A stretch of 64,000 bases of DNA from Escherichia phage fp01. Both the position numbers and the translations under genes were made by a program. The notes below the pieces were generated by a model, which worked only from the letters and a program-made list of their open reading frames with translations, was not told where the DNA came from and ran no database searches. The stretch lies in sequence record NC_048731.1; one strand, 5' to 3'. Positions 2,781 through 64,000 of the stretch are shown one piece after another. The stretch's first letter is position 1. Each line of letters opens with the position of its first letter.

Positions 2781-3271
2781 TGAATTGAGAGACATTAGTA
2801 AAAATTGATTTTGCTAATTTTTCTTGTTTACAATCCGCGATACGGAACAGTTAGGCTGCCCCATTAAGGGTTGTTTTAACTGTTACGTGTTAGTTTTTAA
2901 ACAAATAGTTAATAGAATACTTAGCGATCTGCGTCCCATAGGAACCCTGGTAAGGCCTCGAAGCAACCTAGTATGAGGTGGTTGTGAAGTGAGATGGGAG
3001 GAGTGAAAAACTACCGAGACGTGATTCTGTAAGTTATATTGCATCTAGTATGAGCTAGTACATGAAGCATTAGGTGAGCAAATCTGGCTTAGCGGCCATC
3101 CTCAAGGATTTGTGCGGTATAATGAGGCAGCAGCGCAGCGTGAAAGTGGAAGTTGCCACCCCACTTCAGTATTTGCGATTAATTGTTGAGAAATTGACAG
3201 TAACAGTTGTTCTATTCTTTCTGAATAGTCCTAAAGAAAACTTATTTCATTTCCAACACAGGAGTATTGTT

Positions 3272-50074: not shown

Positions 50075-51832
50075 TTAGGTAAGGCGTTGAACTGTTACTC
50101 TTAATCTAGGTAGGAAAACCGCACTACCTAAACTTACGTGCATAACTACCCCTAACTCTACATTTCCATTTCCTAGATTTTTAACTGTATATGTGAAACT
50201 ATTTCTACTTAGTGCATTATTAGGTGTGTATCTAAATGCAGATGTAGTATGAAATGGTACTAAGTAACCTACAGGTAATGTTAAAATCTGGTGGAATATT
50301 GCATCTCCATTACTATAGCTATAAGCCCTTCTTCCCTGCACCTGAAATACACCGTTATTCCATGTATTAGCCGGAACACCAGCACAATTAAGATTACCAG
50401 ATATAACTTCAGTAGTAAGAATAACGGTAGCATTACCTCCTGGAATTCCTAGTCCAATAGTAGATAGAGCCACGTATCTGTCTCCAGTTCCGGGGTAGTA
50501 AGGGGTAATATCATCCCCCATGTAAGAACTACCAACATTTCCACTAAAAAGTCTCAGAGGAACTGAAGAAGGCCCCCAAACAACACCATGTTCATTACCA
50601 ATAGTATTATTACTTGAGTTTACGTACCATTGCTTACCCGCTCCGAATTTGTAAATACTAATTTGAGACTTAGCCCCTCCATAGTCTACGGGAGACCATA
50701 AACTTCCATTACTAGAGCCTACAAGTTCGCACCTTGCAGTGGTATCTCCAAAGGCTCCAGTGTACGCTGCGTTATTTCCGACGTATTCCATATCTGGCCT
50801 ATAGCCTAAGTTACCAAAAGCATTCTGGTTAATAAACTTATATCCAGTATTCGGTAAACTAACCCCTTTTATAGTAAAATTAGAGGGGGAGATAAGAATA
50901 TCTGAACCAGTAAAAGGATTACCAGAGATACCCATATTACCATTAGAATACCTCAGATTAAGTACATACCAAATAACCTTAGTAGGAGTTATGTTATACC
51001 AATCCTGTAATATTGTAGCATTACCAGATTGATTAGCTAAATTAGTTGTAGAACCCCTACAAACAAATCTGTTACCTCCATCGTGGTACATAGTATTTAC
51101 GCTACCAGGAAGACCTTGTCTTACCCCGCCATACCCACGTATGTTAGAGCTACAAACATAGAACCAATCGTGTCCTCTGTGTGCTGATCCTAAAGGAGAC
51201 ATCCATCCCGGATCCCAGTAATATGGATTATTACCATCTATAGGTACTGTACTACTATTAGTAGGAAAACCCAGCTGTGCAAAAGCTTCTGCAACAGTAA
51301 TACCTACTGGAGCTCCTGCACCTGGCCTAACTATACCATGATAAGTACTATGTAGGGTGGTCCCACCAGTACCATTTCTAGAGATAGATTCTTCATGCCC
51401 TATAGATGGGTTATAGTTATATGTGCCAGATGCCAGGCTATTACCAAATGCAAATCCACTAGTTTGGGAAACGCTAGCAAAAGATCTAAAAGGATCTGCT
51501 TGAGTGGCAACTATAGTTTGACCTACTTTACTCTGAGTACCATTAAGAAAAGCCCTATGAGTACCATTAATCTCAATAGCAGTTAGTATAACTCTACCTG
51601 GGTCATTGGATTTAATATTTATTATGTCAGAGGGCATCTGACATACAAAAAACCCATTTCCAGCATTTCCTAACCCGGCCTCATAAGTACCATCAACTAG
51701 GACAAATGGCATATCACTATGAAAAATACTATTGGCATTTGGACTATAGTGACGATTAATGTCACCCCCAGATTCAGTATTTAAAGATAGTACGGTCTTA
51801 CCATCGCTATATTTTCCAGCGAAAAAACCCAT
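50075..51832 (-). CDS. putative receptor-binding tail protein (pb5-like)
   Basis: 585-aa Gly/Asn/Ser/Tyr-rich beta-type protein next to a divergent lipoprotein gene, the arrangement of T5 oad/llp. Confidence 0.5.
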
Positions 51833-51857
51833 ATAATCTCCTATTATAAAAATGTAT

Positions 51858-51890
51858 TTGCTTTCATCCCTCTATTTTGCTATAATAGAT
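51858..51890 (+). promoter_or_regulatory. T5-type early promoter for the lipoprotein gene
   Basis: -35 TTGCTT (51858-51863), 17-nt spacer, -10 TATAAT (51881-51886), then AGATTCATAAATTAGAAATGGAGAG leader. Confidence 0.6.
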
Positions 51891-51917
51891 TCATAAATTA
51901 GAAATGGAGAGATAAAT

Positions 51918-52184
51918 ATGAAAAAGTTTGTGATTGCACTAGTTGCCGCAGTTATGTTATCTGGTTGTGCACCTGCTCCCAAACCATTTTGTACTGGATT
52001 TGTAAAATCTTTTGGTGGTGCGGGAGAAGAACATTACGGTCTCAAGATTCAAAAAGTTCGTATTAAGGGAGATCGCTTCCCAGTAGTACAGCTCCGTACT
52101 AAGTTTGGGTGGTGGGATCTCAGTCAGTTTGACCTTAAATATGGTGATTGTAAATTTAAACTAGAGCAATCTAACTACCTGTAA
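51918..52184 (+). CDS. llp: superinfection-exclusion lipoprotein (Llp-like)
   Basis: Signal peptide with lipobox LSGC; small size; divergent from the receptor-binding gene; own early promoter. Confidence 0.6.
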   Translation: MKKFVIALVAAVMLSGCAPAPKPFCTGFVKSFGGAGEEHYGLKIQKVRIKGDRFPVVQLRTKFGWWDLSQFDLKYGDCKFKLEQSNYL

Positions 52185-52359
52185 TTAGTATAAAGCAAAA
52201 AGACATCCAAGTAAACTAAATTTTTTATTTTTTGGATGGTATATTGGCAGAAACCACTATGCAAGAAAAGTAGAAGTCCTTCTAGGAAGTCACGAGTATG
52301 GTTGGTTATGCACAAACTATAAAATATTCCAAATACAACATTTACGGGGCACGAAAGTT

Positions 52360-52488
52360 ATGTCAAATAAAAGAAAGAGCAGACGCGGAGAAGTGTATGA
52401 TAGCTGGATAAATAGTTTTGGGTTCGGAACTATCTTATTCTTTATTTTCGTAGGTTTTTGGTTAGCAGCTATGGCGGGGTGGATTTAA
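52360..52488 (+). CDS. small membrane peptide (42 aa)
   Basis: C-terminal hydrophobic helix ILFFIFVGFWLAAMAGWI; stop overlaps next start (TAATG). Confidence 0.35.
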   Translation: MSNKRKSRRGEVYDSWINSFGFGTILFFIFVGFWLAAMAGWI

Positions 52489-52592
52489 TGGGAGTAGTAA
52501 TTATTGTTTTACTAATTATTGTAATTCTAGGGCAATGTGTCTTGGATAACCACTTAGCTCGTATTGAACGTAAGCTGCGGGAATATAAATAA
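52488..52592 (+). CDS. small membrane peptide (34 aa)
   Basis: N-terminal hydrophobic helix GVVIIVLLIIVILG; TAATG overlaps on both sides. Confidence 0.35.
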   Translation: MGVVIIVLLIIVILGQCVLDNHLARIERKLREYK

Positions 52593-52837
52593 TGTTTAGT
52601 ATTATAATTGCTTTTATTATCGGGATACTCGCGGGAGTTTTCGGGACGACTGCGGCAATCAACAAGCATCGTAAATATATTGCGGGAGTGACGCGGGAGA
52701 TTGCGGAAAGGGAGCGGAAGTTTGACGAGAAACGTGCGGAGTTTGAGCGAGAGTGGTCGGATGGATCTCGGGCGTCGCGGAAGAGATTCCGTGAGTTCAG
52801 GCCAGAACACAGGTTTGATGACCCTTCTATGCGCTAA
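52592..52837 (+). CDS. small membrane protein with charged Arg/Glu-rich tail (81 aa)
   Basis: N-terminal TM helix FSIIIAFIIGILAGVFG then highly charged tail. Confidence 0.4.
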   Translation: MFSIIIAFIIGILAGVFGTTAAINKHRKYIAGVTREIAERERKFDEKRAEFEREWSDGSRASRKRFREFRPEHRFDDPSMR

Positions 52838-52947
52838 TTTGACTTTTGCCAAATTTCATAAGATTACACATGGAGGTGTGCCCAGTGGGTTGGGGGAGAA
52901 TACTTAGTCTGCTAACCGCCACCCCCGTTACTATTACCTTGCTAACT

Positions 52948-52986
52948 GTTTCATCCTGTAACCATTTTAATTACAGGATGAAACTA
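52948..52986. promoter_or_regulatory. perfect hairpin downstream of dmp-like gene
   Basis: gtttcatcctgtaa-ccatttta-ttacaggatgaaac, 14-bp perfect stem; no clear U-tract. Confidence 0.4.
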
Positions 52987-53001
52987 TGTCAACTTTAATT
53001 A

Positions 53002-53736
53002 TTACGCAACTTTTAATTTCTCAATATATTGTTGCGGGCTGCAACTATATTCTGCGCGTTCTTCCTCGGTCATACTTTCCCAACATAATTTCAAACGATC
53101 GGCTAGGAACTGATAATCATTATCATCCTCGAGGGATTCATCAATAAAGGTTCCGCCTATCAATGCCACGCCGATTGATAGAATATCATTAACGGCTTGC
53201 GCATCTAGCGTTTTAAATCCATATGACGCAGCCGCTGATAATACACCTTTATGATCATCAATCATTGTAAAATCAGCGTTCGGATATAGCTGTTTAAATA
53301 ATTCAAAGTAATAACTTTTGTATACTGCGTCCTTGCTGTGGTATATCTCGCTAACCTTATCAGCCTCAAAATATTTATGCAGTGTATCGCGGGAAAATAC
53401 ACGGATATTACTATCACCACGCCCGCGCAATCCTTGTTTGCGCAAATAATAATAATCCGACTTGCTCATCAGCCGAGCGGTGCAAATAATGTTTAAAGTA
53501 TTTGAGTCATTCATACATTGGCGCATATATTCCACCAAAGGTAATAAGGTGTCTTGCATTATTAAATCATGTTTACACGCTTCATTTTTATACTTATTTA
53601 AATTTAAATTCCCGTCGCTATCAAAGCAAGGCGCTACACGATGGAAAGAATTAATGATAGTGCCGTCCAGATCCCAAATCATGACGCGGGAAATATGCGG
53701 GAAATTACGGGAAATATTCATAATAGCTTTATTCAT
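53002..53736 (-). CDS. dmp: HAD-family phosphatase, 5'-deoxynucleotidase (Dmp)-like
   Basis: HAD motif I IWDLDGTIINS, motif II-like ICTARL, motif IV-like MIDDHKG; 244 aa; location in pre-early region next to A1-like gene. Confidence 0.5.
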   Translation of the reverse strand: MNKAIMNISRNFPHISRVMIWDLDGTIINSFHRVAPCFDSDGNLNLNKYKNEACKHDLIMQDTLLPLVEYMRQCMNDSNTLNIICTARLMSKSDYYYLRKQGLRGRGDSNIRVFSRDTLHKYFEADKVSEIYHSKDAVYKSYYFELFKQLYPNADFTMIDDHKGVLSAAASYGFKTLDAQAVNDILSIGVALIGGTFIDESLEDDNDYQFLADRLKLCWESMTEEERAEYSCSPQQYIEKLKVA

Positions 53737-53815
53737 TTGTTACGTTCTCCATTAAAGGGATGTAGTTTATCCAGCACTGCCCGCTATTTATAAGCGGGCA
53801 ATAATAAATCAACTA

Positions 53816-54223
53816 TCAAAGACCATAAGCCAAAGCATCGGCGATAAAACTAATATCTTCGCCGGATATATGGGAACGAATACCCGCGCAGATATACACC
53901 TTTGCGCTTGATAGCTGATCATCAAAGCAAGCCGGACAAGGCGCGACAACTGCAAACGCAAGGCCAGCTTTCACGGCGTCAATGATAATCGTTTCTTGTT
54001 TCACCGTATCAACATAAACGCCTGCGGCCTTGATGTAACTACTTGCGCGGCCTTGCGTATAGGCGAAAGTCGTGATCTGTAGCGCCTCATTAAATTCGAT
54101 TAAATCATCAACAACGTGACCGGCCTCAACGTGATACCGCTCACCATTAGAATAAACCAGAACGATTGAGGATTGAGCGCGATCGAATGGAATATTTTGC
54201 TTTTTCATATTTATAAACTCCAA
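53816..54223 (-). CDS. hypothetical pre-early protein (A2-position)
   Basis: 135-aa ORF between A1-like and dmp-like genes; contains HVE...PCPAC. Confidence 0.4.
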   Translation of the reverse strand: MEFINMKKQNIPFDRAQSSIVLVYSNGERYHVEAGHVVDDLIEFNEALQITTFAYTQGRASSYIKAAGVYVDTVKQETIIIDAVKAGLAFAVVAPCPACFDDQLSSAKVYICAGIRSHISGEDISFIADALAYGL

Positions 54224-54274
54224 TTAATTTAATAAGGGGCATAAGCTGGAAGTATTTCCAGCTTATAAATTTAA

Positions 54275-55954
54275 TTATGCGAAAAATTTGCCGTTTTTAA
54301 AGTCAATCAAAGTGCGTTGCCCGTTGGCGTATGTAATTAAATGCGTTTGCGTCCAGCTTGACGCGCCAACGTTGTAACCCATATCCAGACTACCAGCTAC
54401 GCCAGCGGTATAAACGCCGCCATAAATGCTAGCGGTGTGAGTGTGTCCGGTGTTTAACTTGCCCAATTTCTTAAACTGCTTAGGATTGCCACGGCTGCCG
54501 TTTATGCCGTTATGACCGTGTACACCACACTCAATGCCTGCAATTTTGAATGATTGATCAGTCGTTAGGAAAATCGCGTTAAACTCGCAACCTGCGACGC
54601 TACGCAGCGCATAATCTAGCACGTTGAAAGTATCGTCATGATTACCGATTGCCGCGTAAATTGCAGCATTAAGGCGGTGATATAGTTCCGCATTGGCTGG
54701 GTCGTCTTTAATGTTAGCATTACGATCATCAAGCCAACGAGATAGCGCCAAATCGTGATTCGATTCAACAATGATCGTTTGACTAAAATCACGCTCCATC
54801 GATTCCAGCACGCGCCCGGTATCGATAAGATCATCAATAACCTTATCCCGTCCGGCTGCATACTGTTTCGCTAGAAATACACCGGAAGCGCGGTTATGAT
54901 GATTGCGCGATGTAAAATCATGCACGTCATGGATAAACTGATATTTAGGCTTGAGAATATCAAGCAAACTATTGTCGCCAGCCCATGACGCTGCGGCGCA
55001 CTCCTCATCTAATTTTTCGGCGTGAATGTCACCATACTGTAAGCCTAAAACATGCCCCGATGTTTCATAGCATCCGGCGGGAGTAGCGCAAACATTCAGA
55101 TCATAAAACACCCCGCTTTCATCCATTGTTTCAAGCTGGCGAACAAAAAATTCACCGTCCTCATCGAACTCGACAATCAGCGCACCAAAGTTATGAAGTG
55201 CTTCCGCTTTCTGTCCTGCTTTCTGCTGAATGTAGTTTTTGAGTGTTGCCGTTCCGGTTGAATACATGCGGCGCACCACTTCACCTTTTAAAGCTGGGAC
55301 GCTTTCGGCGGTGATTTTAGCGTGACCAATTGCCAGACCCTCGATATTTAAAGCCGTTGCAGTTTCTGCAAATCCAGAAAGCGGATAATCTGCGGTTGGC
55401 AAAACATTAATTTCAGCCATGAAAGCAAAACGGCGGTTATTTAAAAACACGTTTTTGCTGCAAATATACTTATCAAAAGCGGAATCATATTTGATTCCGT
55501 CAGCACCTTCCCCATTTTGGAATCCGTTTTTATTATAAATATACTTAGAAACAAGCAAATCAGCGCCGATAAATTTGGCATATTGTTCAAGCGAGGACAA
55601 AAAGTTTTTATGCGGGAAAGTATTATTCTGAATCGATGTAATAATAAAGCGTTTGCCTTGTTTTACTTCCCACTGTTCCACGGTACTAGAAACAATTCCA
55701 GCCGCTTCGGGGCGCTCATCGTTTTTAATGGCTTTTACCGCTTTCGCCGCTTTCGGTTTAGCTGGTTTATTTGCTTCCAGCCAGTCGCAGATAGCGGTTG
55801 AATGTTTTGCAGTATCGTAAACCGCTTTTGATATATCGTCGCAGACCTCCAATTTAGTAGCGCGCAGACGTTTACCATAGAAATTAAAGTCAGCGGCTAG
55901 TTTCAGGATAGCGGTTTGTTTTTCTGCGGAAAAAATCATAGTAATAAACTCCAT
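54275..55954 (-). CDS. A1: A1-like pre-early protein with metallophosphoesterase-type nuclease motifs
   Basis: 559 aa; calcineurin-like motifs GDIHAE and GHTH; GC-rich composition; position matches T5 A1. Confidence 0.55.
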   Translation of the reverse strand: MEFITMIFSAEKQTAILKLAADFNFYGKRLRATKLEVCDDISKAVYDTAKHSTAICDWLEANKPAKPKAAKAVKAIKNDERPEAAGIVSSTVEQWEVKQGKRFIITSIQNNTFPHKNFLSSLEQYAKFIGADLLVSKYIYNKNGFQNGEGADGIKYDSAFDKYICSKNVFLNNRRFAFMAEINVLPTADYPLSGFAETATALNIEGLAIGHAKITAESVPALKGEVVRRMYSTGTATLKNYIQQKAGQKAEALHNFGALIVEFDEDGEFFVRQLETMDESGVFYDLNVCATPAGCYETSGHVLGLQYGDIHAEKLDEECAAASWAGDNSLLDILKPKYQFIHDVHDFTSRNHHNRASGVFLAKQYAAGRDKVIDDLIDTGRVLESMERDFSQTIIVESNHDLALSRWLDDRNANIKDDPANAELYHRLNAAIYAAIGNHDDTFNVLDYALRSVAGCEFNAIFLTTDQSFKIAGIECGVHGHNGINGSRGNPKQFKKLGKLNTGHTHTASIYGGVYTAGVAGSLDMGYNVGASSWTQTHLITYANGQRTLIDFKNGKFFA

Positions 55955-56033
55955 TAAAGGGATAAAAAACGTTTGTTATTGGCAATATTGCCAGATATAA
56001 CGCCTTGAATAATAGGCGTTATAATTTGCAACA

Positions 56034-56231
56034 TTAATTTAAAGGCATAAGGCTAGAACTAACACCACAAACAACGGCGGCAATAAAACAAATCAGACCT
56101 AAACGCTTCGCTAACTTAGATTTGCGTTTAAAATAATACGAATCTAAGTCATTTTGAAAATATGCGAACAATAACGAGGCCGCCATAATAAATAGTCCTA
56201 GAATCAGCGATTCAGTAGGGTAAAAGATCAT
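56034..56231 (-). CDS. small membrane protein
   Basis: Two hydrophobic helices; start set to internal ATG with RBS TGGAG. Confidence 0.35.
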   Translation of the reverse strand: MIFYPTESLILGLFIMAASLLFAYFQNDLDSYYFKRKSKLAKRLGLICFIAAVVCGVSSSLMPLN

Positions 56232-56288
56232 TTTAATAACTCCAGTTAAAGGGAAATTATAGTGGGGAATAATCCCCACTAGTTAAAT

Positions 56289-56696
56289 TTATTCACCTGC
56301 GGCCTGTTTTACTTCATCGGCAACGCCTAACAACTGCGCCACGGCGTCCAGCGTTTCCAGTTTCGCGCTTTCAAGGCTTGCCAGATCATCGGCGTCTTTG
56401 ATAATGCCGGAATCAATAGCGTGTTTTGCAATTACTCGCACATAATGAGCCTTGCGGATTGAACTGCCGCCGCCAACTTTGCGCGGCTTATCGCTTTTTT
56501 GATAGGCTTTCGCGCTGGTCAATTTTGAGCGAACGGATACGGGAGAAGTCGCGCCCACTGCCTTTGCAATCTCTTTCAGGCCGTCGCTATTTGCAAATTC
56601 TAAACCGTTTTCGTTGATTAACTGCTGATACAGGGTAACAGCTTTTTGGGTGTTGTCTTCATTCCAAGTGAATTTTGCGGTTTTTGCGTTAGTCAT
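56289..56696 (-). CDS. hypothetical pre-early protein
   Basis: 135-aa ORF, E. coli-like codons, RBS GGAG. Confidence 0.45.
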   Translation of the reverse strand: MTNAKTAKFTWNEDNTQKAVTLYQQLINENGLEFANSDGLKEIAKAVGATSPVSVRSKLTSAKAYQKSDKPRKVGGGSSIRKAHYVRVIAKHAIDSGIIKDADDLASLESAKLETLDAVAQLLGVADEVKQAAGE

Positions 56697-56794
56697 GGTA
56701 AAAACTCCAATTAATTTAATTTAAGGGATTAGATTAACTAATGTTAATCGTTATAACCCTCCTTATTCTAGGAGGGTATAAAGTTAACACTAAT

Positions 56795-57046
56795 TTATAA
56801 TACAGCTTCCCATTTTTCGTTGCGTTGAACAACCTTTACAACATCGCCTGATTTAACGCGAACGTTATAAACGGTTTTGCCGTTGTTACTGCGTTCTGTT
56901 TCAGCGTATACCGCGTCGATTGTATCGAACGGCATAAGCGCCGCGCCTTTAATACGTTCGGCCTTTCCGGTTAATTCATCCGTTTTAGTAACGAAAGGAA
57001 TAAAAACGGATTGACCAATTTTAGGCGTGGTAATAACGTTTTGCAT
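56795..57046 (-). CDS. hypothetical pre-early protein
   Basis: 83-aa ORF with RBS GGAG. Confidence 0.4.
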   Translation of the reverse strand: MQNVITTPKIGQSVFIPFVTKTDELTGKAERIKGAALMPFDTIDAVYAETERSNNGKTVYNVRVKSGDVVKVVQRNEKWEAVL

Positions 57047-57246
57047 AATATAGACTCCAGTTTATTCAGTGGATTGTTCCGCATTACCTGCTAGAAAATA
57101 ACAGGTAATAAGAAAAAATCCGCTCGCCATTATAAAATCAAATTAAAGAACTCCACGCGGGCCGCTATATCCCAGTTAGGGGGCGAGACACATTATGGTA
57201 AGTGCCGACCGTCAAATTGTATCAAGTTATCGCTCTTTTCGAACTG

Positions 57247-57271
57247 GGTATATCTTAAAAGCCCATCGGCT
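57247..57271. repeat. left arm of a 25-bp inverted repeat flanking a two-gene cassette
   Basis: GGGTATATCTTAAAAGCCCATCGGC; reverse complement with one mismatch at 57670-57694. Confidence 0.8.
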
Positions 57272-57277
57272 AGGTTG

Positions 57278-57478
57278 TCAAACTATTTTTTGCAGTTTTT
57301 TATGATTTTCCTTCAGGTCAATCATAATATTACGCCAGATCATTTCTAAACCTTGCTGGCGCCCTTTCTTGTACTGCGTGAAGCGGTATTTTACCGATCT
57401 TTGCGCTACTGTCAATAATTTTTTAGTTTCGCTATCCAGTGCCTTGCTAGGTTTACCAGTGATCAATAGAGTTTGCAT
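57278..57478 (-). CDS. hypothetical small basic protein
   Basis: 66 aa, Lys/Arg-rich; start overlaps upstream stop (TAATG). Confidence 0.35.
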   Translation of the reverse strand: MQTLLITGKPSKALDSETKKLLTVAQRSVKYRFTQYKKGRQQGLEMIWRNIMIDLKENHKKLQKIV

Positions 57479-57636
57479 TATTTGAGATCCTCCAAAGCGT
57501 ATAAACCTTTGCCATCATTGCAGATTATTACTGCTTCTGAATAGGTGGCATGATATTCGTTTGCCGCTTTTACCCATTGCTCGATCTTTTCGATCGTGTC
57601 GTGGGTAGCTGGATGATCGTTATATATTGTTTGCAT
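57478..57636 (-). CDS. hypothetical small acidic protein
   Basis: 52-aa ORF found by hand (below the track length cut-off); RBS AAGGA 9 nt upstream; translationally coupled to the next gene. Confidence 0.3.
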   Translation of the reverse strand: MQTIYNDHPATHDTIEKIEQWVKAANEYHATYSEAVIICNDGKGLYALEDLK

Positions 57637-57669
57637 ATCGTCGATTCCTTATAATGAATAAGTTTACCG

Positions 57670-57694
57670 CCGATAGGCTTTTAAGATATACCCA
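57670..57694. repeat. right arm of the 25-bp inverted repeat
   Basis: GCCGATAGGCTTTTAAGATATACCC; embedded in a local palindrome agtttaccgccg...cggcggtaaact. Confidence 0.8.
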
Positions 57695-58148
57695 ATTTTT
57701 AAAGAGCGCGGCGGTAAACTCCCCGCCGTGTAGTTCGTCATTGCCGCCCTACGAGATAAATAATAACAAACAACGAAAAAGGCGCAACCTTATATTTGTA
57801 AAGAAATGTAAAGACAAAATCCACCGGACACCGTGCGGCGATCTGGGCGCGACGGCCTAAAATTAAAAGAAACGGGCGCGCGAATACCACAAAACACAGC
57901 AGATAAGCAAGTAATTTTTTCATTTATATTTGCTTTGCCCTACTTGACAAAATCTAAAAAGCTCGTGGCGACGATAAACGACGTGGCCCCTTATGATTGG
58001 ATGGCTAAAAACTTTACTGCGTTCTGGGGCGTTTCAGGCCGCTTATTTTCGACTTAACAAATCATTAACAAACGCAAAATTGAAAAATAGTTGGAAAAGG
58101 TCTTGACTTTTAAAAATCAAGACCAAATGACTTAATTTATTAAATTAA

Positions 58149-58667
58149 TTAATTGACAATTCCAAATTCAGCTTTTTTAGTTTCAAGCCATAATAATAAC
58201 TCTTGTAAATCATAACCTGACTTACTAACACGCTTGTTAGTAATAGGATTCTTAATTTGAGCAGTCAAATAGTCACGCCCGTAACTATCACGGGGGCGAA
58301 CTTTATTAACGTAAATGTTTTTAGGGATACCATTAGCACGCTTACAGTTTTCATACTCACTAGGAGTACGATTATAATTATTCTGCGAACTATCAACCGC
58401 GCGAAGATTCCAGATGTTATTATTACGAGTGTTACGATCGATATGATCAATCATTAGCTCGCTATCTATACCGCCATTCATTATACAAAAGATAATTCTA
58501 TGTACTTTTAACTGTCCCATGCCTAATAGTTCAACTTGCCAATAATTACCATTTAAACCACCTGCGACGGCGTGATCTTCCCGCCAACGTAAAAATGATA
58601 ACGCTGTTTCATCATAATAAAAGTAACTATTAAAAAGATCATAATCTATATCTTTATATTTACCCAT
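58149..58667 (-). CDS. HNH homing endonuclease
   Basis: HNH signature MIDHIDRNTRNNNIWNLRAV (H-x-D...N...N); AT-rich codons unlike the GC-richer neighbours. Confidence 0.65.
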   Translation of the reverse strand: MGKYKDIDYDLFNSYFYYDETALSFLRWREDHAVAGGLNGNYWQVELLGMGQLKVHRIIFCIMNGGIDSELMIDHIDRNTRNNNIWNLRAVDSSQNNYNRTPSEYENCKRANGIPKNIYVNKVRPRDSYGRDYLTAQIKNPITNKRVSKSGYDLQELLLWLETKKAEFGIVN

Positions 58668-58931
58668 TGTTATAGTTTCCTTATGTTATTAATTTAATCT
58701 CTATTATATTATATCAAAACAATTAGCAGACTAGCTAATGAGTTTTTCAGGTTTAATTAGCAGACTCATAATCACTCTAAAAACCTATTAGCCAACTAAC
58801 TATATTTTATTATATAATAACTGTATAAATTAGTTAGTGAGAACCACTATCATTTAAGTTACCCACAGCCTTATACATTTTGTAAAATAATTTGACACAA
58901 TAGGCGGCGATATGAGGGCTTTTACACAGAC

Positions 58932-58940
58932 TTATCCACA
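58932..58940 (+). promoter_or_regulatory. consensus DnaA box
   Basis: TTATCCACA exact match to the DnaA box consensus. Confidence 0.5.
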
Positions 58941-58950
58941 GGTTATTCCA

Positions 58951-58966
58951 CTGTATAAATATACAG
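58951..58966. promoter_or_regulatory. LexA (SOS) box-like palindrome
   Basis: CTGTATAAATATACAG fits CTGT-(AT-rich 8)-ACAG. Confidence 0.4.
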
Positions 58967-59232
58967 GGTAAAAAGGTAGTGTTAACAACTGCAATCAATT
59001 TTAAGCGGCCTAAAACGCTTTCTAACGAGCTAAACGCTGCGGGGTAGTATTAAAGTAAAGCCTTCACCCGTCGGCCTGGTGGCTTCGCCGTGTCTTGCTC
59101 TTTACTACACCGCTGCGCGGTTAGCATAAAACTAGGTGTTAGGCAAGGAAAATAAAAAAGTAAAATAATCTTTGCCTATGCTAGAAAATTACCCTTATCA
59201 TTCACTCACCGATTAACGAGGGAGGCCAACAA

Positions 59233-60219
59233 ATGCGGCTATATAAACCAGATAACGCAACCGTCTTAAAAGGTGCGCTGCGTAACCTGCTGGACGGTAG
59301 CAGAACAACCAGCATTAAACATTTTGTTTTCAATATTGAAACTATTCATCAAAACTTTTTTGATGATTATGATGCTTACAATATGAATAGTTTTCTACCG
59401 TTATATAAGCAAGGGGCAACGCTTGTTTTATATAATCAGGATTATCAATTACTTACTAGTAGGGGGCCGGATACTGATTTCATAGTCGTAAAAGGCAACA
59501 CAGTAAAAGCCTATGATACTGGGGCGGGCTTAGAAGTTTTTTCAATAGAAAACTATGAAGCCAATGATAATGATCTTTATGACGTAGAAAATTTTCTTGA
59601 TTCATTTTGGCGTTATTTATCAGTTGGCTGGAATCGGTCGGATTCTGATGGGTATCGTTTTGCGGCTATAATGGCCTTTGATGATAACGGTAATTTTTTG
59701 CTACCGTCGGAGTTATATAATCGGGTATATGAAGGCGATATTGTTGACGCCGGATTTTCTTTCGAAAGGGAAGAAAGTATTGACAGTATAGAAAAACATG
59801 CTGTAAATTCTAACACTAAAAGCGTTCACACTCAAACTACTGAAAACAAAGGAAAAAATGCCATGACCAAGATCGCTAACATCGTTGCCGCCAATAAGTC
59901 TGCCGTTGTAAACGCTGCAAAACTGGAAGCGGGTAAAATTGCACTGACTCAAATTACGAAAGTAGCGGCTAAAAAAGCACCGTTCATGATCAAAGGCTAT
60001 ATTGATACGCCGATTGGTCGTGTAGTGATCGCTAACCTGCTGAGTGTAGCGGTTGACCAGTACGCCCCGAGTAACCAGAAAGCGAAAGCGGTAGCAGGGG
60101 CGGCTATGGAAGCGGCGATGTTGGAAATGGTGCAAAGTTTTAACATCGCTGAGATGATTGATGAAATGGTAAAAGGTATCGATATTTCTACTTTCACCAC
60201 TAACACCGAAAGCGAGTAA
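59233..60219 (+). CDS. hypothetical pre-early protein (328 aa), two-part composition
   Basis: RBS GAGGGAGG; C-terminal third Ala-rich with E. coli-like codons. Confidence 0.45.
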   Translation: MRLYKPDNATVLKGALRNLLDGSRTTSIKHFVFNIETIHQNFFDDYDAYNMNSFLPLYKQGATLVLYNQDYQLLTSRGPDTDFIVVKGNTVKAYDTGAGLEVFSIENYEANDNDLYDVENFLDSFWRYLSVGWNRSDSDGYRFAAIMAFDDNGNFLLPSELYNRVYEGDIVDAGFSFEREESIDSIEKHAVNSNTKSVHTQTTENKGKNAMTKIANIVAANKSAVVNAAKLEAGKIALTQITKVAAKKAPFMIKGYIDTPIGRVVIANLLSVAVDQYAPSNQKAKAVAGAAMEAAMLEMVQSFNIAEMIDEMVKGIDISTFTTNTESE

Positions 60220-60283
60220 TAATAACTAGCGGGGTAACAATCCCCGCTTTACTATTCCCTTGTTAATTAATAGGAGGCTAATT

Positions 60284-60601
60284 ATGCAGCTTAACAAAAA
60301 AATGCTAGAACAATTGCGGGGTAGAATCCAGCGCGATGACTACCCTCACATTAATTATTCTTCGGAAGTAGTAGACACTGCCGATTCATGGAAAAAAGCA
60401 GGTTACCCCTATGTATGGCAACATGCAGAAAGCGCAAACGGATTCCATGCCTTTCGTGATTTAGGTCATGGAAAACTTTGCGTTTTTAAAGGTGAGTTAT
60501 TAATAGGAGTATCAGAATCGGAAGTAATCACGGATGAGGTTGTATTCTTAGACAATGACCAATATGAAACAGGCAATCAGTTTTATTTTCCCGCTAATTA
60601 A
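60284..60601 (+). CDS. hypothetical protein
   Basis: Start at ATG 60284 behind TTAATTAATAGGAGGCTAATT; the track start at 60260 lacks an RBS. Confidence 0.4.
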   Translation: MQLNKKMLEQLRGRIQRDDYPHINYSSEVVDTADSWKKAGYPYVWQHAESANGFHAFRDLGHGKLCVFKGELLIGVSESEVITDEVVFLDNDQYETGNQFYFPAN

Positions 60602-60615
60602 TAGGAGGCTAATTA

Positions 60616-61110
60616 ATGGCTGAAGAAAAATATGGCTTCTCACTGGGAGAAGTGAGCACGGCAAAACATGATATGATCATTTTAGTCGATTGTCATACTG
60701 GCTATTGCGGGGAAGGGAATACCGAGGAATATTTTGTTCCTGCTGGTACGGATCTAGACGCTTTCGCTCAGGAAATGGCTATTGATAATGCTTCTCGTTT
60801 TGGTAGCGATGGCTATGAAGACGAGGAAACTGGCGAATGGTATGAAAATGAAAACGTATATGCGAGCCTTTATCATTATCAATTAAGTAAATCCGGCACA
60901 TATGTAAACGGCGGCGATCCTATTAATTCCGTCATGAAATTAATTATTAAACACGGTGGCGTCGAGATAATTGATAACAAAGCGGTAATATATGCAAACC
61001 GATTAAAACAGCTTGTTTATATCCCTGATAGTACCCGATGGGATGAATACGCCGTTTTGCATGACGAATTGAAACGATGTTTCAATGTTGAAGCCTTACA
61101 AGTAGTCTAA
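60616..61110 (+). CDS. hypothetical acidic protein
   Basis: Preceded by the same TTAATTAATAGGAGGCTAATTA element; 164 aa. Confidence 0.45.
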   Translation: MAEEKYGFSLGEVSTAKHDMIILVDCHTGYCGEGNTEEYFVPAGTDLDAFAQEMAIDNASRFGSDGYEDEETGEWYENENVYASLYHYQLSKSGTYVNGGDPINSVMKLIIKHGGVEIIDNKAVIYANRLKQLVYIPDSTRWDEYAVLHDELKRCFNVEALQVV

Positions 61111-61123
61111 TGTAAAGTTTTGT

Positions 61124-61152
61124 AAAGGTCGCCTTTTATGGTGGCCTTTTTT
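61124..61152 (+). terminator. putative terminator followed by an extended -10 element
   Basis: aaaggtcgcc-ttttat-ggtggccttt (G-U wobble stem) then TTTTTTGCTATAATG. Confidence 0.4.
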
Positions 61153-61216
61153 GCTATAATGCCTTTACACCGTTTGAGGACGGTTGAAAATTTTCCCAAA
61201 AATTTGGAGGCTTAAA

Positions 61217-61447
61217 ATGGTTGCTTATTCTTCTTCTGACGCTCTTTTCACTGGGAAAGGCTGGGTATCTAATCGCTGGATTATTCAAGAAATGGTGCAA
61301 GAATACGGCATTGCTAAAACTTACACTACCATTCAGGCGCTTTATGATAATGATCAAATCGATCAGCAAACGGCGGGCTTTTTGCTGGATACCCTGAAAG
61401 CGGAACACTGTACCAAAAAACAAGCGGCAAAAATTGTTTTAATGTAA
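61217..61447 (+). CDS. hypothetical protein
   Basis: ATG at 61217 with RBS TGGAGG; 76 aa. Confidence 0.35.
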   Translation: MVAYSSSDALFTGKGWVSNRWIIQEMVQEYGIAKTYTTIQALYDNDQIDQQTAGFLLDTLKAEHCTKKQAAKIVLM

Positions 61448-61496
61448 TTAATAACGGGGCGTTACTTTCGCCCCACTAACTAGGGGAGTAGTACAA

Positions 61497-61679
61497 ATGG
61501 TTATTTTTCGAGCTGTTCTAGCAGGTATCTTGGGCGCTATTTTGACCCTTTTCGCCACCGCGTATGGTATTCAGGATTCCTATTGCGGTTTGGTAAATAC
61601 AAAACCAATGGTTACTATTGGCGCTGGCATTGCTGTATTTTCTTATCTGCTAGGCTGCATGACTAGTAAAGGAGAATAA
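61497..61679 (+). CDS. small membrane protein
   Basis: 60 aa with two hydrophobic helices; RBS GGGGAG. Confidence 0.35.
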   Translation: MVIFRAVLAGILGAILTLFATAYGIQDSYCGLVNTKPMVTIGAGIAVFSYLLGCMTSKGE

Positions 61680-61681
61680 AA

Positions 61682-61894
61682 ATGATCCGCAACGTTTCTC
61701 TTGCACGTTCGAAAGGCTTTAAGCTGGTGGATGCTAACACGTTCGAGCGTCTTGATTGTAAAATCGAATATGTAGCACGTAACAAAAATGCCTTTCGTGT
61801 TACCGAGAAAAAATTTGACAAGCGCGGCAACGTGATCGCTGAAACGGTTAAACACTTTGCCACCTTTTACGCTGCGTTTCGTGGGGTGTTATAA
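61682..61894 (+). CDS. hypothetical small basic protein
   Basis: 70 aa; starts 3 nt after previous stop. Confidence 0.35.
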   Translation: MIRNVSLARSKGFKLVDANTFERLDCKIEYVARNKNAFRVTEKKFDKRGNVIAETVKHFATFYAAFRGVL

Positions 61895-61895
61895 A

Positions 61896-62240
61896 ATGGT
61901 TATTTATGAAGGCAATCGTTTTGTTGCTAATTGCCGCCCGGCATTGTTAGCAAACTATTTAAATCAGCTTTCGCCAGCTTATAAGGGCGTTATTAATATT
62001 TATGAGGGCAAGGCACATTATAAAATTAATGCGGTCGTTGCCCGTGAACTAGCATTTCAATTTTTGACCTTTGCATCTTGTGACGTTCAAGTTATGGGTG
62101 AAGCATTAATTGCGGAAAATGAAGAGGATTTTATTAATATTTTCCGCAAGGTATGCACCGAGCGCCTGATAATGAAAGGCGCGTATATTCAATCCACTGC
62201 GGATAGTATTGAAACAGCGTTTCGAAAGGTGGCACAATGA
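61896..62240 (+). CDS. hypothetical protein
   Basis: ATG at 61896 directly after upstream stop; 114 aa. Confidence 0.35.
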   Translation: MVIYEGNRFVANCRPALLANYLNQLSPAYKGVINIYEGKAHYKINAVVARELAFQFLTFASCDVQVMGEALIAENEEDFINIFRKVCTERLIMKGAYIQSTADSIETAFRKVAQ

Positions 62241-62395
62241 AAAAGTTTTTAATAGCTGGCATGTTTCCTTTGTTGCCTTATGTAATTTGCTGGGCTTTAT
62301 ATGCTCATGGTGCTAGTGTTCCCGGTGTGGCTGCATTTGGTGTATCAGCGGGCTTTCTAGCCGGACTACTAGCAAGCGTATATTTACGCAAGTAA
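62237..62395 (+). CDS. small membrane peptide (52 aa)
   Basis: Hydrophobic throughout; ATGA overlap with upstream gene; found by hand. Confidence 0.3.
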   Translation: MKKFLIAGMFPLLPYVICWALYAHGASVPGVAAFGVSAGFLAGLLASVYLRK

Positions 62396-62414
62396 TTAAC
62401 AACGGAGCGTTATT

Positions 62415-62609
62415 ATGAGCAATAAAATTATTGTAACCAAAACCAGCACAACGGTTGATGTTTTTTACGTGCCCGATACGCCGGAAAACCGACAAGCGGT
62501 CGAGCGTGGGGAATATGATAAAGTGATTTATGATCACGATGGTTATTATCAGTATTTGGTGGATTCATATGGGGAGGAGGAAAAGATCACGCACCGACTA
62601 CCGGACTAA
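62415..62609 (+). CDS. hypothetical small acidic protein
   Basis: 64 aa; RBS ACGGAG. Confidence 0.35.
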   Translation: MSNKIIVTKTSTTVDVFYVPDTPENRQAVERGEYDKVIYDHDGYYQYLVDSYGEEEKITHRLPD

Positions 62610-62650
62610 TAATCACGGGGCGCAACTATCAGGAAGTGCCCCCAATTCTC

Positions 62651-62671
62651 AAATGAGAATGATTCTCATTT
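62651..62671. repeat. perfect 21-bp palindrome
   Basis: AAATGAGAATGATTCTCATTT; related copies at about 63160 and 63220. Confidence 0.7.
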
Positions 62672-62893
62672 GACCGCGCCCGCGATGGTTAGCCTGCTAA
62701 TGGTTAGGGTGTTACGTGTCGCCTTGTGTGATCGTTAGCGAGCTAACTAATTTTCAAGCCTCCTCCAATTTTGCCCTTGTTTTAGTATCCCCACCAAAAT
62801 TAAACGCGTTAGAATGCGTTTGAGGGCGTTTTAGCGGTATATTAGAATTATTCACTGCGTAGGAATACTGTATATTTATCCAGTAGGATAAGC

Positions 62894-62978
62894 TGTGGAT
62901 AAGTCTGTTGATAACGCTTCAAAACGGCTAGGATTTTGTCAAGTCAAATCGTGCTGTTGATAAGTCTGGGGATAACTT
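62894..62978. promoter_or_regulatory. cluster of DnaA-box-like sites
   Basis: TGTGGATAA (62894-62902, exact reverse-complement consensus), TGTTGATAA at 62906 and 62955, GGGGATAAC at 62967. Confidence 0.55.
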
Positions 62979-63007
62979 AAATAATAGTGTTTCTCACTTC
63001 CGTTCTT

Positions 63008-63250
63008 AAATGCGAATCATTATCATTTGCATTCCACTTCCTGAATAAGAATCATTCCACTATCTAAACGATAATCATTCCACTTCCTGAATAATAATCA
63101 TTCCACTATCTAAATAAGAATCATTCCACTATCTAAACGATAATCATTCCACTTTTTAAATGAGATTGATTCTCATTCCACTTTCTAAATGCGAATTATT
63201 ATCATTCGCATTCCGCTTTTTAAATGAGAATGATTCTTATTATCATTCGT
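63008..63250. repeat. about 9 tandem copies of a roughly 23-bp direct repeat (iteron-like)
   Basis: Repeating (A)ATCATTCCACT(A/T)TCTAAA(C/T)(G/A) units. Confidence 0.8.
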
Positions 63251-63255
63251 ATTTA

Positions 63256-63282
63256 GCGCAGAGCAATTGCTCTGCGCTTTTG
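63256..63282 (+). terminator. perfect 22-bp palindrome with T-tract
   Basis: GCGCAGAGCAATTGCTCTGCGC then TTTTG. Confidence 0.55.
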
Positions 63283-63520
63283 TGCAAAACCGACATTGCT
63301 CCACGGGTGTTACGTGCGGGCGTATGTGCAAATCCGACAGGATTTTTGGTAGTGTGCAAATCCGACCCGAAAAATTTTTATAGTGTGCGAATCCGACAAT
63401 GAATTTTTCCAAAAACTCCAGCAATCCGATGCTGCGCATCAATCCTGTGGAATTAACTAGAATATGTGCAAATCCGACATGAGTTTATTTGTGCGAATCC
63501 GACAAGATTTTTGTGACTTC
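63282..63520. repeat. six direct 13-bp repeats GTGCRAAWCCGAC
   Basis: Copies near 63282, 63328, 63353, 63384, 63466, 63490, each followed by an A/T-rich tract. Confidence 0.8.
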
Positions 63521-63529
63521 GATTGGAGG

Positions 63530-63700
63530 GTGTGTGATTGTGTGGGTTTGGGGAGAAGTTGAGAGAGCGAGGGAAAATTAGGGGAGAAGCTAGAGAGGCG
63601 CATGTTTGGTGCGGGGGCACCCGATTTGCGGGGATTTTGGGGAAGAGTTGAGAAGATTTGGGTTAATTTGAGATTAGTGGAGATAAAGTAAAATTTTATT
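63530..63700. repeat. purine-rich G-tract region with three GGGGARRAGYTRGAGA copies
   Basis: ggggagaagttgagaga, ggggagaagctagagag, ggggaagagttgagaag; strong G/A strand skew. Confidence 0.6.
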
Positions 63701-63834
63701 AGCTAAATGGGGCAAAATAGCTTGACAAGTGAAAATTCTTGTGGCTCTAAAAACTCAGGCAATCATGGGCCTTCGGCCCGAAATAATGCTGCCATTTTCA
63801 AGAGATTATGTGTCCATGAAAACTTAGGCAATTG

Positions 63835-63985
63835 TGCAAATCCGACCATAAATTTCTAGAAACACAATGTGCAAATCCGACAGTAAAATCCAGAAATGTG
63901 TTTTCAAAAAATGTTGTCTAGAAATAACCGCCCTCCCCATAACCGCCCTGTATTAAACCGCCTAGTATATGTTCCTAGAAACTTA
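63835..63985. repeat. two further GTGCAAATCCGAC copies followed by four AACCGCC motifs
   Basis: GTGCAAATCCGAC at about 63837 and 63870; AACCGCC at about 63927, 63943, 63957, 63981. Confidence 0.7.
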
Positions 63986-64000
63986 GGAGAACCGCCCACT

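Follow-up and report, generated by a model that had tools for sequence, protein, structure and literature searches.

The window analysed here, 64,000 nucleotides of Escherichia phage fp01 (NC_048731.1), is DNA of a T5-like phage (Tequintavirus) whose nearest relatives are SPC35 and BF23. The 817 nt around the gene cluster described below matched 383 phage records, best among them SPC35 (94%) and BF23, and these records are without exception T5-like phages of Escherichia, Salmonella and Shigella. The cluster consists of three short plus-strand open reading frames: ORF1 (52360-52488, 42 aa), ORF2 (52488-52592, 34 aa from its ATG; the program-made ORF list gives a 44-aa version starting at TTG) and ORF3 (52592-52837, 81 aa). 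Both junctions, ORF1/ORF2 and ORF2/ORF3, have the stop-start overlap TAATG, and the coordinates, lengths and overlaps are exactly those of the original prediction.

The order of genes across this part of the window is the gene for a 585-aa receptor-binding protein on the minus strand (50075-51832), llp (51918-52184) and ORF1-3 on the plus strand, and then dmp (53002-53736) with A2 and A1 beyond it, all on the minus strand. The cluster had been placed between a lipoprotein gene and dmp, and that is where it lies. It had also been described as antisense to its neighbors, which is right for the receptor-binding protein gene and for dmp and wrong for llp, which is read from the same strand as the ORFs. 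The llp gene encodes a receptor-blocking lipoprotein of the BF23 type, is 97-100% identical to the llp of BF23 and SPC35, contains the lipobox LSGC and matches Pfam LPAM_1 and PHROG 1119 (Cor superinfection exclusion).

The left boundary of the right terminal repeat is placed at position ~52879, 42 nt past the ORF3 stop, by transfer from the repeat_region annotation of SPC35, BF23 and T5, with which the window is collinear here. Directly before this putative boundary, at 52838-52879, lies AAATTTCATAAGATTACACATGGAGGTGTG, which is near-identical in T5 where the flanking bases diverge more, and which could be part of the end-cutting site. The window continues for more than 11 kb beyond the putative boundary (52879-64000), as compared with repeats of 9.6-10.1 kb in SPC35 and T5. 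In the source record the repeat is probably collapsed into one copy, with the early region after it.

Hydropathy analysis shows a single hydrophobic stretch of 19 residues or more in each of the three ORFs (mean Kyte-Doolittle hydropathy 2.1-3.1), in line with the single transmembrane helix previously predicted for each and with the notes 'contains single transmembrane domain' in the T5 record NC_005859. The placement of the helix differs between the proteins. ORF1 has a basic N-terminus (KRKSRR) followed by a C-terminal membrane helix that reaches the last residue. In ORF2 the membrane helix is N-terminal, and the protein carries the invariant motif GQC(I/V)LDNHLARIE. ORF3 begins with a membrane helix and continues as a long helix rich in Arg, Glu and Lys. 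The strong charge predicted for the ORF3 tail is borne out, 31 of its 58 residues being charged (18 K+R and 13 D+E), and an AlphaFold2 model shows ORF3 as a single helix from residue 2 to 69 (mean pLDDT 72.7). By the positive-inside rule, the charged parts of all three proteins would be cytoplasmic.

The architecture of ORF3, an N-terminal anchor followed by a charged cytoplasmic helix, is shared with LapA domain, ZapG/YhcB, FtsL-like and PspB-like proteins. Searches of the ORFs against Pfam, NCBIfam and PADLOC returned sub-threshold matches or none. Those of ORF3 to LapA_dom (PF06305, E=1.3e-4) and FtsL_COG5462 (E=0.03) are probably driven by the hydrophobic helix and do not establish membership of either family, the scores being 22.2 bits against a cut-off of 28 and 13.9 against 50. 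A Foldseek search of the PDB with the single-helix ORF3 model gave no match.

The ORFs had been thought to fall below or near the length usually annotated. This is not the case: counterparts have been annotated in T5 records since 1994 and in BF23 records since 2006, and the three ORFs are thus not new. ORF1, ORF2 and ORF3 are the orthologues of T5 orf1, orf2 and orf4, equivalent to T5.159, T5.160 and T5.162. Three T5 records carry these genes under different names. NC_005859 lists T5.159 (42 aa), T5.160 (35 aa), T5.161 (64 aa) and T5.162 (81 aa); the same genes are ORF148-151 in AY587007, the counterparts of ORF1, ORF2 and ORF3 being ORF148, ORF149 and ORF151; and they are orf1-orf4 in X75922, the 1994 llp record. 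In the BF23 records DQ097178 and OR083247 the counterparts are Orf1, Orf2 and Orf4. Profile matches cover the proteins almost end to end, ORF1 matching PHROG 8596 (E=3e-32, positions 1-42 of 42), ORF2 PHROG 6369 (E=3e-17, positions 1-34 of 35) and ORF3 PHROG 6447 (E=2e-47, positions 1-81 of 81).

In T5, too, the cluster has llp on one side and the right terminal repeat on the other and is read from the llp strand, with gene lengths of 42, 34-35 and 81 residues and stop-start overlaps. ORF1 is 97.6%, ORF2 72% (over 29 aligned residues) and ORF3 87.7% identical to its T5 counterpart. The two clusters differ in that T5 also has the 64-aa T5.161/orf3, which the window lacks, and in that the C-terminus of ORF2 reads ...RKLREYK in the window and ...TLLTEKRK in T5. 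The llp genes differ too, the BF23-type llp of the window being unrelated to that of T5. In Escherichia phage HildyBeyeler (Bas33) ORF1, ORF2 and ORF3 are again chained by overlaps, here of 1 to 8 nt, but the cluster has five genes (bas33_0187-0191), adding a T5.161 homologue and a 51-aa paralogue of ORF2 (alignment z=6.8), and a homing-endonuclease gene follows ORF3. The sites of variable membership are at 52565-52592 in the window, 3030-3253 in locus L004 and 1901-2354 in locus L034. The chain of translationally coupled micro-genes thus has between 3 and 5 members. Apart from the 51-aa Bas33 paralogue, paralogy among ORF2, T5.161, ORF3 and the proteins found at the same position in a Klebsiella phage (see below) was not significant.

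ORF1-3 are real protein-coding genes under purifying selection. Conservation of the frames and their overlaps in relatives had been named beforehand as a check on the original prediction, and we examined it in 31 loci (30 fetched loci and the window). All three frames are present with ATG starts in 31 of 31. ORF1 is intact throughout, with GGAG or GGGG 10 nt 5' of its ATG, and ends in TAATG in every locus; the later junctions are TAATG or TGATG. The start of ORF2 overlaps the stop of ORF1 in 29 of the 31, the other two (L015 and L017) having extra sequence between the genes. Substitutions cluster at the third codon positions of the annotated frames, and pairwise dN/dS in frame is 0.115 for ORF1, 0.138 for ORF2 (codons 1-27) and 0.229 for ORF3 (residues 1-67), as against 0.64-2.9 in the two other sense frames. 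The low values (0.12-0.23) are thus confined to the annotated frames, with one antisense frame at 0.35, which we attribute to the coincidence of its third codon positions with those of the sense frame. Together, the retention of frames, ATGs and overlaps across 31 loci and purifying selection in frame only place the cluster far beyond chance. Two further reading frames were rejected as genes. For the antisense 127-aa ORF (52469-52852) dN/dS is 0.96, and 5 of 28 relatives have the frame interrupted. A fourth, upstream ORF (52298-52411, 37 aa), annotated as an N-terminal extension of ORF1 in some relatives, has ACG in place of its ATG in 4 of 12 and its frame broken by 1-nt indels.

Conservation within ORF3 extends over residues 1-67. 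The final 5-14 residues vary, with at least five unrelated endings past residue 67 (52793-52837) among relatives (L016-L029, L034, L039). Some database members have a tail shortened by an in-frame deletion, of exactly 7 residues in three cases and of 17 in another. Two of the 31 loci have a damaged ORF3, L023 through an in-frame stop and L030 through a helix deletion, which suggests that the gene is dispensable in culture. Phage Shivani has an alternative ORF3 ending with an HNH homing-endonuclease gene just 3' of it; Bas33 also has such a gene and keeps the ending seen in the window. The switches of ending may reflect recombination tied to endonuclease insertion.

The cluster is confined to one lineage, the T5-like phages of the E. 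coli/Salmonella type, nearly all of which carry it. The tblastn counts are 446 phage records for ORF1, 444 for ORF3 and 415 for ORF2. For comparison, dmp is present in 907 Demerecviridae records, ~440 of them at 80% identity or above, a number close to the count for ORF1 and ORF3 (~445). Set against the 907 dmp records, these counts imply that Vibrio, Proteus and most Klebsiella relatives have no detectable homologues. An ORF3 profile built from 21 sequences and searched against 1.84 billion representative proteins retrieved five clusters, all from its own family. At the same genome position the Klebsiella phage DevonBitter (Sugarlandvirus; L035, 4361-5050) encodes a 74-aa and a 153-aa protein, both of which begin with a helix and continue as a charged or coiled one. 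Neither is significantly similar to the T5 cluster, and the two may be functional analogues of it.

ORF1-3 form a probable transcription unit with llp. An early promoter is annotated upstream of llp in T5 (AY587007 and X75922), and we found no terminator-like site between llp and ORF1. The spacer between these genes (52185-52359) is 94% identical among phages with a BF23-type llp and unrelated to the T5 spacer up to ~40 nt before ORF1. It contains a candidate internal promoter with the extended -10 element TGgTATATT (52237-52245, plus strand). A promoter is predicted at the matching place in the BF23 record, and 11 of 12 aligned relatives have TATATT or TATACT as the -10 hexamer; a consensus promoter scan did not list the element. 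A possible stem-loop in the spacer (CATCCAA/TTGGATG) was rejected, the changes seen in relatives being uncompensated. Downstream, between the convergent ORF3 and dmp genes and ~70 nt inside the terminal repeat, a perfect inverted repeat forms a conserved hairpin with a 14-bp stem (52948-52984), three positions of which covary across relatives. The hairpin is recorded as a putative terminator in AY587007. A T-run is absent from it on both strands, so it is not a canonical intrinsic terminator, and it is probably the end of the transcription unit. An Rfam search of 51800-53100 gave no match.

RNA-seq of Bas33 at 20 min post-infection contains reads that map to the cluster, and these are gone when second-step DNA transfer is blocked. 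The counts, obtained without strand information, vary erratically from gene to gene. The values are 219/127 TPM for llp, 462/408 for the T5.161 homologue and 22/13 for the ORF3 homologue. The ORF1 and ORF2 homologues (genes of 108-129 nt) are at ~1 TPM, as compared with 137-462 TPM for their neighbors, probably because reads are unassignable among such tiny overlapping genes.

The nucleotide sequence of ORF3 has an additional feature. Eight GCGG motifs, mostly GCGGRAG, are arrayed between 52631 and 52780 on the plus strand. Nowhere else in the 64-kb window is GCGG so dense: 160 nt hold 8 motifs here, where the mean is 0.37 and the next-richest stretch has 5. GCGGRAG occurs 17 times in the window where 5.8 are expected, and 5 of the 17 are in the array. 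Among 38 distinct relatives, 30-37 retain any given copy of the motif, and both T5 and Shivani have conserved the array. Four-fold synonymous diversity is 0.05 inside the motifs and 0.25 in the rest of ORF3 (28 sequences, p=0.004); with 38 sequences the values are 0.06 and 0.24 (p=0.018). Codon usage is atypical, GCG providing 6 of the 8 Ala codons and CGG 4 of the 13 Arg codons of ORF3, as compared with 10% and 1.9% in 32 long genes of the window, and GC content is 50% versus 39%. The spacing of the motifs is explained by a tandem repeat of 21 nt, which codes for a heptad repeat; the frozen synonymous sites lie beyond that explanation. The array could be a protein-binding array near the cut site of the terminal repeat, a set of Shine-Dalgarno-like pause sites or a rare-codon brake. 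In Shivani a homing-endonuclease gene intervenes between array and repeat boundary, making the distance ~600 nt, which argues against a packaging site acting at a fixed distance and weakens that role for the array. A literature search for the T5 terminase site found nothing.

The cluster is not tied to a particular llp. T5 has an unrelated Llp, yet its ORF1 is 97.6% identical to that of the window, and Shivani lacks llp and has kept the cluster. Persistence beside an unrelated llp or none indicates that the cluster is independent of the receptor module, and this weakens the idea that the ORFs help Llp. When llp was cloned alone, up to the start codon of ORF1, plating was ~1e2-fold lower in one study, as against more than 1e6-fold in earlier work.

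These observations agree with the structural part of the original prediction, namely that three real, coupled, single-helix membrane ORFs lie where the unique region meets the terminal repeat; both conservation and hydropathy support it. The joint explanation that we think best, with confidence a little better than even, is that they encode three coupled single-pass inner-membrane proteins with an accessory role, a function in lysis being less likely. The cluster comes after llp, an early gene of the same orientation, and its end is at the hairpin just inside the right terminal repeat. In this scheme its three products would be made together after second-step DNA transfer, each as a single-pass protein of the inner membrane, with the charged parts facing the cytoplasm: in ORF1 the basic N-terminus, in ORF2 the short tail and in ORF3 the Arg/Glu/Lys-rich helix of 58 residues. 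They would reside in the inner membrane, perhaps as a complex; their strict co-occurrence and coupling suggest that they may act as one. Most likely they would then serve a receptor-independent accessory function, blocking the entry of superinfecting DNA or modulating a complex of the host inner membrane. A role in superinfection exclusion or at the host membrane is plausible because the cluster shares its strand and a probable transcription unit with llp.

Superinfection exclusion in other phages is mediated by small inner-membrane proteins expressed early, such as T4 Imm and Sp and HK97 gp15. The ORFs resemble these in being small, early-expressed, predicted inner-membrane proteins linked here to an exclusion gene, llp, but we found no sequence similarity between them and ORF1-3. 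T4 Sp moreover acts in the periplasm, whereas the ORF tails are predicted to be cytoplasmic. None of the literature searched mentions T5.159-162. The BF23 genome paper, a preprint on T5 two-step injection and the HIDEN-SEQ preprint are silent on these genes, and an accessory-gene screen (PMC12373910) mentions Llp alone, once.

Among the alternatives, the ORFs might be toxins that serve host takeover by depolarising the inner membrane or inhibiting a machine located there. The apparent expression of the cluster after second-step transfer would suit such a role, the richness of ORF3 in rare codons could be a brake on a toxic product, and PHROG 6447 belongs to the category 'moron, auxiliary metabolic gene and host takeover'. 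That category is an annotation label, however, and the known takeover functions of T5 are pre-early genes within the terminal repeat, while the ORFs lie just outside it. We regard this possibility as unlikely. A further proposal, also unlikely, is that ORF3 is dual-coded, carrying an array that works at the DNA or RNA level, and that the three proteins form a receptor-independent superinfection block complementing Llp.

The original prediction had also offered a holin-like or pinholin-like set, and this part of it is disfavored. As a lysis-control group, the proteins would time or trigger membrane permeabilisation in the manner of holins, pinholins or antiholins. The likeness lies in their being small single-helix proteins and in the highly charged C-terminal tail of ORF3, a feature common to many holins; in addition, the lysis genes of T5 are likewise situated outside the late region. 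Those genes, however, form a complete cassette ~90 kb away (T5.040-T5.045), comprising the endolysin T5.040, the 218-aa holin T5.041 and the Rz-like spanins T5.044/045, and the lysis genes of relatives are described in the same way. The presence of a complete cassette elsewhere makes a holin role for the ORFs unlikely. T5.041, of class III type, also has a single transmembrane domain, but at 218 aa it is much the larger protein, adjoins the endolysin and has no sequence relation to the ORFs. Moreover, no holin family in PHROGs, Pfam or NCBIfam was matched at E up to 1, no endolysin adjoins the cluster (its neighbors are llp and the terminal repeat) and there is no dual-start motif. Pinholins have two helices, as opposed to the one predicted for each ORF. 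Taken as a whole, a lysis-control function appears improbable.

It is highly improbable that the frames are incidental and owe their conservation to a cis-acting DNA element (a packaging or terminase site) or to the antisense 127-aa ORF: the region does end 42 nt from the repeat boundary, ORF3 does hold the dense conserved GCGG array with its frozen synonymous sites and atypical codons, and the antisense ORF does exist, but substitutions fall at third positions with low dN/dS only in the annotated frames, the antisense ORF has neither low dN/dS nor continuity, start codons, Shine-Dalgarno-like sequences and overlaps are conserved, the ORF3-tail indels are in-frame blocks of mostly 7 residues, and Shivani keeps the array far from the boundary. 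A cis element could nevertheless exist alongside the coding function. Two other identities were rejected. A two-component spanin (Rz/Rz1), in which an inner-membrane subunit with a periplasmic coiled coil pairs with a lipoprotein of the outer membrane, does not fit tails predicted to be cytoplasmic; T5 already has T5.044/045, llp is a receptor blocker and the cluster persists without it. Nor are the ORFs Cor/Llp-type lipoproteins, as ORF1-3 have no lipobox and LPAM_1 and PHROG 1119 are matched by llp only.

The cluster is real, selected, lineage-specific and previously annotated, an ordinary discovery of modest interest as an experimental target. The GCGG array in ORF3 is its sole element without a description in the records or literature searched. 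T5 is a classical model phage, and these genes have stood in its records for 30 years without an assigned function. Their purifying selection, their independence from the receptor module and the unlikelihood of a role in lysis make ORF1-3 defined targets for knock-out.
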